Part shown: piece after piece, positions 35,280 to 57,956 of the stretch
How the letters are laid out: every line of letters begins with the position of its first letter
Numbering within the stretch: position 1 is the stretch's first letter
NCBI RefSeq assembly: GCF_013315695.1
Contig: NZ_CP054353.1
Direction: 5' to 3' (one strand)
Origin: Escherichia coli
GTDB taxonomy: Bacteria > Pseudomonadota > Gammaproteobacteria > Enterobacterales > Enterobacteriaceae
Length of the DNA: 64,000 nt
Translations under genes and position numbers: made by a program
The notes under the pieces: generated by a model
The model's database searches: none
What the model was told of the DNA's origin: nothing
What the model saw: only the letters and a program-made list of their open reading frames with translations

Positions 35280-36210
35280 CGAACGCTCCCAGACGTTTCA
35301 CGAACGCCAGGTACAGTGCGATGAGAACAATCGGCACCAGGGTGAATGCCGCCGCCATCGGCATATTGCCAATCGCTCCCTGCTGGGAATAAACCATATT
35401 GCCGATAAAATATCCTGGCGGGCCAACCAGTTGCGGGACGATAAAATCACCCAGTGTGAGTGAGAAGGTAAAGATAGAGCCAGCGGCAATACCCGGGATC
35501 GCCAGCGGCAACACTACATAGCGGAAAGTTTGTCTAGGACGAGCGCCAAGATCAGCCGACGCCTGCAACAATGACGGCGGCAAACGCTCCAGCGCTGCCT
35601 GCACCGGCAGGATCATGAACGGCAGCCAGATATAAAGAAACACGAGAAAGCGTCCCAGTCCTGACGTTGACAGCGTATTGCCGCCCACCGCCGGTAGTGT
35701 GAGAAACGCCGTGAGTAGTGGCTCCAGCCCAAGATGCTGTAAAAACCACTGCGCTACACCGTCTTTAGCCAGCAATAATGTCCAGGCATAGGCTTTAACA
35801 ATGTAGCTTGCCCACATGGGTAACATTACCGCAATGTAGAAGAACGCTTTCATTTTTCCGCTGGTATAGCGCGCCATATACCACGCCATTGGAAAAGCCA
35901 GAATGGCGCTGGCGATAGTGACTGCCACAGCCATAATCAGCGTGCGGAGAATGATGTCGTAATTCGCCGGATTAAACAGCGCACGGATATTGGCCAGCGT
36001 CAGTTCCGGCGTTACCGACATGGTGAAATCGTCAAAGGTATAAAAGCCCTGCCATAACAGCGTTAGCAGCGAGCCAAAATAGACAATGCCAAACCACATT
36101 AGCGGGCCAAGCAGCAGTAAAAACAGCCCCAGCCCCGGATTACGCCAGAAGAAACCGGAAACCTTACCCAGACCTGGACGTGAAGGTGATTGCAATACAT
36201 TCATCGCCAT
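35269..36210 (-). CDS. ydcU: ABC transporter permease
   Basis: 313 aa. Confidence 0.88.
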
Positions 36211-53566: not shown

Positions 53567-55207
53567 TCACACCGTAGCGAAACTAACTGGTTCACCCGCT
53601 CCGCGAGGTTCTGCCGACACAGTATGTTTGTTCAGACGGAATACGTCCACCGCCTCAGTTAATCGTGCCGCCTGTTCTTCAAGGGACACCGCCGCCGCTG
53701 AGGCCTCTTCTACCAGAGAAGCATTCTGTTGCGTCACCTTATCCATTTCAGAAATCGCCTGGCTAACCTGCGTTATGCCTCTACTTTGTTCATCCGAGGC
53801 GGCGGCGATTTCCTGCATGATATGTGTGACACTCGCGACGGCATCAACAATAGTGCTCATGGTTTTCCCTGCCGTTGCCACCTCATCCGACCCCAGGTCA
53901 ATTAACCTGACTGATTCACTGATCAAGCCTTCAATCTCTTTCGCCGCCTGAGCGCTGCGGCTTGCGAGTGTCCGTACTTCGCTGGCGACAACGGCAAATC
54001 CACGTCCTTGCTCACCCGCTCGCGCGGCTTCAACGGCAGCATTCAGTGCCAGAATATTCGTCTGGAAAGCAATACTGTTGATGACGGCGGTGATCTCGGA
54101 AATTTTCTTCGAACTCGTGGAGATAGCGCCCATCGTTTTTACTACACCGGAAACCGTCTGCCCGCCATCGCTGGCTTTAATAGAAGCCTCCTGCGCCAGT
54201 TTGCTGGCATGATGCGCGTTATCTGCATTCTGTTTCACCGTCGCAGTGAGTTGCTCCATGCTGGCGGCAGTTTGTTCAATTGCCGCCGCTTGTTCTTCGG
54301 TGCGAGATGAAAGGTCCGCATTGCCAGCGGAAATTTCGCTGGTGCCACGATAAATCTCTTCCGCGCCCTGTCGAACGGTCCCTACAGTCATCCCCAGTGA
54401 ATGCTGCATTTGCTGTAAATGACGACTTAAGCGACCGATTTCATTACGACCCGCCGGTTCATCATTCATCGTCAGATCGCCACTGGCGATTTTTTCAATC
54501 CGTTGTGCGGCATGTTGCAGTGGACGAATGACGATCCGACGTAGCACTATAAATGTTATCAGCGTCATGACCAGGGCAAGCACAAACGCGCCAATCATGA
54601 ACATCCCACCCAGGCGGGTGCGCTGATGGGCCAGTTCCGCCAGTTGGTTGGCTCTGGTGCTACGTATCTTAACGGCTTTGCTCAAAATATCGGTATAAGC
54701 ATTATCCAGCGGTCGGATCTGCTCACTTTCATGATTGATAATCGCTTCAAACATGCCATTTTTGGCATATTTCAACATCGGTTGCATACCCGTGATATAA
54801 GCCTGGAAGCGTTGATTTAATTCAGTGTCGAGGGCTTCATCAGCAGGTGTTTTCACCGACCGATTCTGATAAGCACGATAACCTTGCTGCGACTGTTTAA
54901 TCTCCGATTCGGCTTGCGCAATATTTCGCTTCATTGCTTCCATTTCCGCAATACGACTCGCTGCCCCGGCCTGAATCATATTGATCCGGGCTGAACGCAA
55001 AAAATCTGAACTGTTCGCTAACCCGGTCCGAATCTCAATCTCCGCAGTAACATCACGCTGATCGCGATCGGCCTGCCAGAGGAAATAGCCAGCCAGAGCA
55101 GAACTTAATGCGAATAGAACTAAGATACCGCCAAGAATGCAGGCAAATAACGGAACCAGCCTGATGTGATGCAAAAAACCTAATCGCTGTGAGGGAGTTG
55201 TATTCAT
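53567..55207 (-). CDS. trg: Methyl-accepting chemotaxis protein III (ribose/galactose sensor)
   Basis: 546 aa, HAMP and MCP signalling domain. Confidence 0.9.
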
Positions 55208-55246
55208 TACCGTTGTCTCTCGTCCAGGTTTACTCCTGATAGAAAG

Positions 55247-55273
55247 TCATCGGCACTTGACGGTAATTACTTA
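55247..55273 (-). promoter_or_regulatory. Putative sigma-28 (FliA) promoter for trg (TAAGTAAT-N11-GCCGATGA)
   Basis: Match to TAAAGTTT-N11-GCCGATAA about 40 nt upstream of trg start. Confidence 0.45.
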
Positions 55274-55479
55274 TGACCAAAAACCTCTTTGCGTCACATT
55301 TTTACAACAATTATGGCAGAGAAGAATAATGCCATTGGAATGAAGAGAGTAACGAACGGCTAAACCGAATGACGAAAAATTCTGGAAAACAGCACGCAAT
55401 TTCGTCAAGTGATTATTTTCGTCCCTAAGGAAACCTCATAGGATGCCTGCGGGTGCCTGAGACTTTCTGTTTTCAGGCT

Positions 55480-55538
55480 AACCGGGAATCAGAAAGACGA
55501 AGGCCCCGACCGATATTTCTATCAACCGAGGCCAACGA

Positions 55539-55550
<12 letters not shown>
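55480..55550 (-). ncRNA. sokB: sokB antisense RNA (approximate extent); promoter -35 TTGCCG / 17 bp / -10 TATGAT on minus strand at about 55557..55585
   Basis: Near-consensus sigma-70 promoter reading antisense into mokB start region, as in hok/sok loci. Confidence 0.45.
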
Positions 55551-55746
<196 letters not shown>

Positions 55747-55809
55747 GGGCAAGCGCGGGGATTTTCCCCGCGCATCTGACTAGCGGATTCATTTTCTCAT
55801 GGCACCCCT

Positions 55810-56954: not shown

Positions 56955-57956
56955 ATGAGTAAAGTTGGTATTAACGGTTTTGGTCGTATCGGTCGACTGG
57001 TGTTGCGTCGATTACTTGAAGTCAAAAGCAACATAGACATTGTCGCTATTAATGATCTCACTTCCCCAAAAATTCTCGCCTACCTGCTGAAACATGATTC
57101 AAACTACGGACCGTTCCCCTGGAGCGTTGATTTTACGGAAGATTCACTTATCGTTGATGGGAAAAGTATCGCGGTTTACGCCGAAAAAGAGGCTAAAAAT
57201 ATTCCGTGGAAAGCGAAAGGCGCAGAAATCATTGTCGAATGTACTGGCTTTTATACCTCCGCCGAGAAATCGCAGGCGCATCTCGATGCTGGCGCGAAGA
57301 AGGTGTTGATTTCCGCCCCTGCCGGTGAAATGAAAACTATCGTTTATAACGTCAATGACGACACTCTGGATGGCAACGATACCATTGTTTCCGTGGCGTC
57401 ATGCACCACTAACTGTCTTGCACCGATGGCCAAAGCCTTGCACGACAGTTTCGGAATAGAAGTCGGCACGATGACGACCATTCATGCCTATACCGGCACT
57501 CAGTCACTGGTGGATGGTCCGCGAGGTAAAGATCTACGCGCTTCACGTGCAGCGGCAGAAAATATCATTCCCCACACTACAGGTGCGGCAAAAGCCATTG
57601 GTCTGGTGATCCCGGAACTGAGCGGCAAACTGAAAGGTCATGCGCAACGCGTGCCGGTGAAAACAGGTTCGGTCACTGAGCTGGTGTCCATTCTCGGAAA
57701 AAAAGTGACTGCCGAAGAGGTGAATAACGCACTTAAACAAGCAACCACCAATAACGAGTCATTTGGTTATACCGATGAAGAAATAGTCTCTTCCGATATC
57801 ATTGGCAGCCATTTCGGTTCGGTGTTTGATGCCACGCAAACGGAAATTACCGCCGTGGGCGATTTACAACTGGTGAAAACGGTCGCCTGGTACGATAACG
57901 AATATGGCTTCGTCACACAGCTCATTCGCACCCTCGAAAAATTCGCTAAACTCTGA
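56955..57956 (+). CDS. gapC: Glyceraldehyde-3-phosphate dehydrogenase C, intact
   Basis: 333 aa, NAD-binding [10 protein letters not shown] and catalytic SCTTNCLAP motifs, uninterrupted. Confidence 0.9.

Follow-up and report, generated by a model that had tools for sequence, protein, structure and literature searches.

The site at positions 55273 to 55247 on the minus strand of the window, by which we mean the whole 64,000-nt stretch of E. coli DNA that was analysed, is almost certainly the class-3 flagellar, σ28 (FliA)-dependent promoter of trg, and one whose activity is boosted by CRP. For K-12, where the promoter sequence is identical, experiments have demonstrated that FliA binds the site and is required for expression, that CRP binds and activates, and where transcription starts; judging from this identity, the promoter should function in the same way in the present strain. 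The promoter, trgp, is already known in the literature and the finding itself is not novel.

Organization of the trg promoter

The initial annotation had described a σ28-type motif, TAAGTAAT-N11-GCCGATGA, at 55247-55273 on the minus strand, about 40 nt upstream of trg. When the window sequence was read directly, the motif was found at exactly these coordinates (55273-55247), 39 nt separate the end of the -10 octamer from the trg ATG at 55207, and the open reading frame that follows (53567-55207, minus strand, 546 aa) translates into Trg, the ribose and galactose methyl-accepting chemotaxis protein. Read along the minus strand, the elements are ...GGTCA, TAAGTAAT, TACCGTCAAGT, GCCGATGA, CTTTCTATCAGG.... 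The -10 element GCCGATGA (55247-55254), which carries the CGA core, matches the consensus GCCGATAA at seven of eight positions, and the spacer TACCGTCAAGT (55255-55265) is 11 nt long, fixed in length and free in sequence. The -35 element TAAGTAAT (55266-55273) matches TAAAGTTT at only four of eight positions, its conserved part being TAAG alone. The promoter thus deviates from the σ28 consensus by a weak -35 and by a G instead of an A at position 7 of the -10; the annotation understated how poor the -35 is.

Transcription starts at an A, which we place at 55240 on the minus strand by transfer from position 1490461 of K-12 (NC_000913.2); the trg start lies at 1490494 in the same coordinate system, and the sequence is identical. 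This base is the seventh past the -10 octamer and lies 33 nt upstream of the ATG, and with +1 at 55240, the -10 octamer occupies -14 to -7 and the -35 octamer -33 to -26. The resulting 33-nt 5' UTR (55208-55240, minus strand) contains a Shine-Dalgarno-like GAGAG at 55221-55217 that ends 9 nt ahead of the ATG. The neighbourhood of trg in the window, cybB-ydcA-hokB/mokB/sokB-trg-ydcI, has the same order as in K-12, with hokB/mokB/sokB upstream and ydcI downstream of the same gene whose promoter was studied there (Hollands et al. 2010, Fitzgerald et al. 2014).

FliA binding, FliA dependence and the transcription start site

The identification of the site as a FliA promoter, as the annotation had proposed, is borne out by several published K-12 experiments. 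The trg region has a FliA ChIP-seq peak (position 1490461 of NC_000913.2; fold-above-threshold score, 23), and the motif under the peak, TAAGTAATTACCGTCAAGTGCCGATGAC, is a 28-mer that equals window positions 55273-55246 exactly (Fitzgerald et al. 2014, PMC4183435). In the same study, the trg RNA level was 108 in motile MG1655 and 4 in the fliA deletion. A trg100::lacZ fusion requires σ28 and falls to the background level without FliA (Hollands et al. 2010, PMC2859248), and trg was also listed among the σF-dependent genes in a microarray study, with a 2.0-fold decrease in the fliA mutant and a 2.2-fold increase after σF induction (Zhao et al. 2007). An independent assignment for trg, made from ChIP-chip and motif data, includes F (FliA) (Cho et al. 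2014, PMC3923258).

The start site was mapped as a primary 5' end at 1490461 (+) by 5'-triphosphate-enriched RACE-seq, and its reported 51-mer ends with ...GCCGATGACTTTCTA (Cho et al. 2014 Table S4, PMC3923258). The mapped start, supported by 8 reads in one condition only, the stationary phase, corresponds to window 55240, 7 nt past the -10 and not elsewhere, which is within the distance of about 6-8 nt expected for a σ28 promoter. The supplements of Yan 2018 list no start at the trg promoter.

We noticed that the window also holds, at 35382-35409 on the plus strand, an exact copy of a weak intragenic FliA ChIP-seq motif of ydcU, GCTGGGAATAAACCATATTGCCGATAAA, which has a score of 3 in Table 2 of Fitzgerald 2014. 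This motif lies outside the top 12 matrix matches of the window, and its distance to the trg site is 19.9 kb in the window vs 22.2 kb in K-12.

The sequence match alone compared with chance

Counted against TAAAGTTT-N11-GCCGATAA, the trg site matches at 11 of 16 positions, and four of the five mismatches are in the -35. By a binomial calculation, we estimate that chance would supply about 36 equally good matches on the two strands of 64 kb. A consensus scan of the window at ≤3 mismatches did not recover the trg site and returned a single, unrelated match; we rejected mismatch counting as a valid test, since a genuine site escapes a three-mismatch scan. Equally weak -35 elements are seen at many genuine FliA-bound sites (Fitzgerald et al. 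2014, PMC4183435).

Position weight matrices were built from the FliA ChIP-seq motifs in Table 2 of Fitzgerald et al., with trg excluded, using either 51 sites or the 24 strong sites. With both matrices, the trg site ranked first among the about 128,000 positions on the two strands of the window. Its scores, 14.7 bits (51 sites) and 15.9 bits (24 strong sites), are near the median leave-one-out score of real FliA sites. A matrix scan thus singles out the annotated site as the best in the window but does not make it significant, because random 64-kb first-order Markov sequences attain the trg score in 46% (51-site matrix) or 18% (24-site matrix) of the trials. By itself, the sequence match is not beyond chance across the whole window. 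The site rises above chance because it is on the correct strand and just upstream of a chemoreceptor gene, is conserved across genera, and is backed by the published experiments.

The CRP site and comparison with aer and other FliA promoters

Upstream of the -35, on the same strand, lies a CRP-cAMP site at 55301-55280, which the annotation did not mention. CRP shifts a trg fragment in gel assays and activates trg100::lacZ in K-12, as seen by comparing cells with and without crp, and the spacing of the CRP site to the -35 and -10 was described as the same at trg and aer (Hollands et al. 2010, PMC2859248). We placed the 22-mer, AAATGTGACGCAAAGAGGTTTT (55280-55301, minus strand), from the sequence and this aer spacing rule, and its exact limits are to be taken as probable ones. 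Of the CRP consensus TGTGA-N6-TCACA, the site has the complete left half TGTGA but none of the five bases of the right half, which reads GAGGT; the flanking A and T tracts are present. A 6-nt gap, TGGTCA, separates the 22-mer from the -35 octamer, and the centre of the CRP site falls at -50.5 with the mapped +1 at 55240 or at -49.5 if +1 is set to 55241 by analogy with aer. A different string, 'TAAAGTAATT', appears in the machine-read text of Hollands Fig. S2; we discarded it as a reading error, as the K-12 genome has TAAGTAATT.

The likeness to aer extends to a sub-optimal σ28 promoter, a CRP 22-mer, a 6-nt gap to the -35 and an MCP-type receptor downstream, and by this analogy, the CRP site would make trgp an aer-type, activator-dependent σ28 promoter. 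CRP acts from -49.5 at aer (Hollands et al. 2010, PMC2859248), and the gap there, which we reconstructed from the published oligonucleotides, is ATCGGT followed by TAAAGATA, while at trg the 6-nt gap is followed by TAAGTAAT. The two promoters are defective in opposite elements: at aer the -35 (TAAAGATA) is good and the -10 (GCCGACAT) defective, whereas at trg the -35 (TAAGTAAT) is the defective element and the -10 is close to the consensus. The start is the sixth base past the octamer at aer and the seventh, as mapped, at trg. The canonical class-3 promoters of tar, tsr, fliC and motA (TAAAGTTT-N11-GCCGATAA) have in common with trg the two octamers, the 11-nt spacer, the sigma factor and the regulon, but they are close to the consensus whereas trg is only about the median of the FliA-bound sites. 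They also show no direct activation by CRP; only tsr bound CRP, at 132.5 bp upstream, without a direct effect on expression (PMC2859248).

A σ70-like pair, TTTACA-18-AATAAT (10 of 12 matches), lies at 55301-55330 on the plus strand, where it overlaps the CRP site and faces away from trg. It is the sole strong pair nearby, and we set it aside because of its wrong direction and because the table of Cho et al. lists no start for it; it is probably a chance match in AT-rich sequence.

Conservation of the promoter across genera

To examine the conservation, species-representative genomes were scanned with the periplasmic half of Trg (residues 1-200), which yielded 80 loci that represent about 25 Enterobacteriaceae genera. 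This peptide-pattern scan did not pick up Salmonella, and the comparison covers the genera that it did. The alignment, anchored on the -10, consists of 80 sequences (79 trg loci and the window), and the information content per column was calculated from 40 representatives that are mutually <85% identical. In 76 of the 78 analysable loci, the best FliA-matrix match within 250 nt upstream of trg was at the homologous position. The -10 octamer is the most conserved block of eight columns upstream (1.82 bits per column in the 40 representatives), and the exact octamer GCCGATGA is present in 63 of the 80 sequences. Within the -35 of the same representatives, the bits per column are 1.59 for TAAG and 1.02 for the four positions that follow it. 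The spacer is 11 nt long in all 80 sequences, but only its length is kept: it has 0.36 bits per column and a mean pairwise identity of 36%, and the far upstream flank has 0.33 bits per column. The two conserved blocks form a classical footprint at the σ28 spacing.

The deviations from the consensus are conserved as well. At position 4 of the -35, the consensus A occurs in only one of the 80 sequences (48 have TAAG, 23 TAAT, 7 TAAC and 1 TCAT), and at position 7 of the -10, the non-consensus G is found in 74 of 80. Other genera retain the upstream TGTGA half-site and the T-tract. Of the 80 sequences, 64 have TGTGA 26 nt ahead of the -35 octamer; the distance is 25 nt in Escherichia and Silvania, and Kluyvera has one of 33 nt. 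The conserved deviations together with the retained half-site are compatible with long-standing selection for an activator-dependent promoter. The stronger view, that the trg promoter has been kept deliberately sub-optimal and activator-dependent across the Enterobacteriaceae, is conceivable from this pattern but in our judgement somewhat improbable.

Downstream of the promoter, (A)AGAGAG ahead of the ATG is kept in nearly all trg orthologues. The E. coli trg leader folds into a CAGG/CCUG stem (-4.7 kcal/mol), and Escherichia variants disrupt this stem without compensating changes. A conserved 5' UTR hairpin was considered and dropped, as RNAalifold found no consensus structure among 60 leaders.

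Two further observations came from these loci. In Enterobacter mori (locus L047, about 1300-1495), a repeat of ~150 nt, ERIC-like as judged by eye, sits inside the trg leader, where it separates the conserved promoter from the ribosome-binding site. The locus titled Chryseobacterium sp. 18061 (L043) is a typical enterobacterial trg locus, near-identical to that of Citrobacter sp. 18056 (L077), and probably either its title is a mislabel or its assembly is contaminated.

Alternative origins of trg transcription

We considered whether the start at 55240 could be served mainly by the σ70 or σ38 holoenzyme, with the FliA-like motif being incidental or minor. Cho et al. (PMC3923258) reported D and S as well as F binding at the trg start, with 'SF' assigned on binding and motif, and found the start in the stationary phase, both of which would fit such a holoenzyme. 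These binding data come from ChIP-chip, whose resolution is low, and Fitzgerald et al. judged the data set to be rich in false positives (PMC4183435). The 27-fold drop of trg RNA in the fliA deletion (PMC4183435) and the background activity of the trg lacZ fusion without FliA (PMC2859248) speak against this reading, and our scan of 55100-55800 returned no σ70-like -35/-10 pair ahead of 55240 on the trg strand. The conserved blocks, moreover, fit the σ28 elements and not TTGACA/TATAAT. We therefore regard a mainly σ70- or σ38-driven start as very improbable and retain FliA as the sigma factor of this promoter.

Even more improbable is a fortuitous motif, with trg transcription originating farther upstream, by read-through from sokB, whose transcription runs towards trg, or from the weak start that is the only one given for trg in the earlier, exponential-phase set of Kim et al. 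2012 (4 reads at 1489908, 586 nt upstream, with none at the promoter): the matrix score, which lacks significance across the window, would allow it, but a start site is mapped 7 nt past the -10 (PMC3923258), the FliA ChIP-seq peak is centred on the motif (PMC4183435), about 25 genera share the -10, the -35 and their spacing despite drift in the spacer sequence and the flanks, and a terminator-like hairpin follows the sokB region (55533-55502).

Variation within E. coli

Over the approximately 130 nt that lead up to the trg ATG, the window and K-12 MG1655 have the same sequence. A 67-nt stretch that runs from the CRP site to slightly beyond the start has 100% identical counterparts in 3241 complete genomes of E. 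coli. Among four variant strains and two divergent Escherichia, the substitutions fall in the spacer, at position 5 of the -35, at the base before the -35 and in the right half of the CRP site; none was found in TAAG, GCCGATGAC or TGTGA among these six aligned sequences. No match to the 67-nt promoter was found in 1393 of the 5416 E. coli genomes that have the region.

A class of deletions, present in a sizeable share of E. coli, begins about 80 nt upstream of the -35 and takes out about three quarters of trg together with its promoter and the CRP site. The trg remnant is an annotated pseudogene, as exemplified by E. coli E302 (NZ_AP022362.1; positions 2647-3110 of its locus, L082), which corresponds to about 55355 of the window and downstream. 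This class presumably fits the reports of Trg loss in uropathogenic/B2 strains.

Compared with K-12 trgp, the window shows no difference in the promoter, and further upstream it lacks one 9-bp repeat unit and carries a few SNPs. The missing 9 bp (GGTTAGCCA), which K-12 has, would lie between 55366 and 55365 in the minus-strand reading, in the sokB-trg intergenic region, and they make up one of the units in a short tandemly duplicated sequence, GGTTAGCC-A-GTTTAGCC; the few SNPs lie just downstream. Elsewhere in the region, an intact open reading frame of 333 aa is found at the position of gapC (56955-57956, plus strand), a type I glyceraldehyde-3-phosphate dehydrogenase according to the E302 annotation, whereas in K-12 gapC is listed as split into gapC_1 and gapC_2.

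Discussion

The most likely sequence of events is the one already established from K-12 and, for CRP, from the analogy with aer. FliA holoenzyme, freed from FlgM late in flagellar assembly, initiates at the trg promoter by reading GCCGATGA in the -10 octamer and TAAG(TAAT) in the -35 octamer across the canonical 11-nt spacer, and transcription beginning at the A at 55240 yields the 33-nt leader. The promoter is weak intrinsically, and CRP-cAMP bound just upstream (55301-55280) would recruit the σ28 holoenzyme from an unusual position, about -49.5/-50.5, of the kind first described for aer. Recruitment has been dissected at aer only, and we infer that the same mechanism may operate at trg. Because the trg::lacZ fusion of K-12 needs σ28 as well as CRP, trg expression should require the motile state and the lack of catabolite repression, a dual requirement that suits a receptor for ribose and galactose.

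For the scanning of genomes, the trg site may serve as a calibration: a genuine σ28 promoter can carry mismatches at five of 16 positions and have a matrix score at the chance level in 64 kb. Such promoters therefore have to be validated by position, conservation and experiment, and not by mismatch counts.

For the strain itself, an intact trg promoter, identical to that of K-12 and with its CRP site, is of little importance beyond annotation, but it implies that Trg synthesis should be confined to cells that are motile and released from catabolite repression. In most genera, the half-site is 1 bp further from the -35 than in Escherichia, which would put CRP about one position upstream of the sole geometry that was tested, at aer. 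If selection acts on the conserved deviations, the retained half-site and its spacing, the direct coupling of this sugar receptor to CRP would be ancient, and the geometry from which CRP acts on σ28 promoters may be more tolerant than the work on aer implies.
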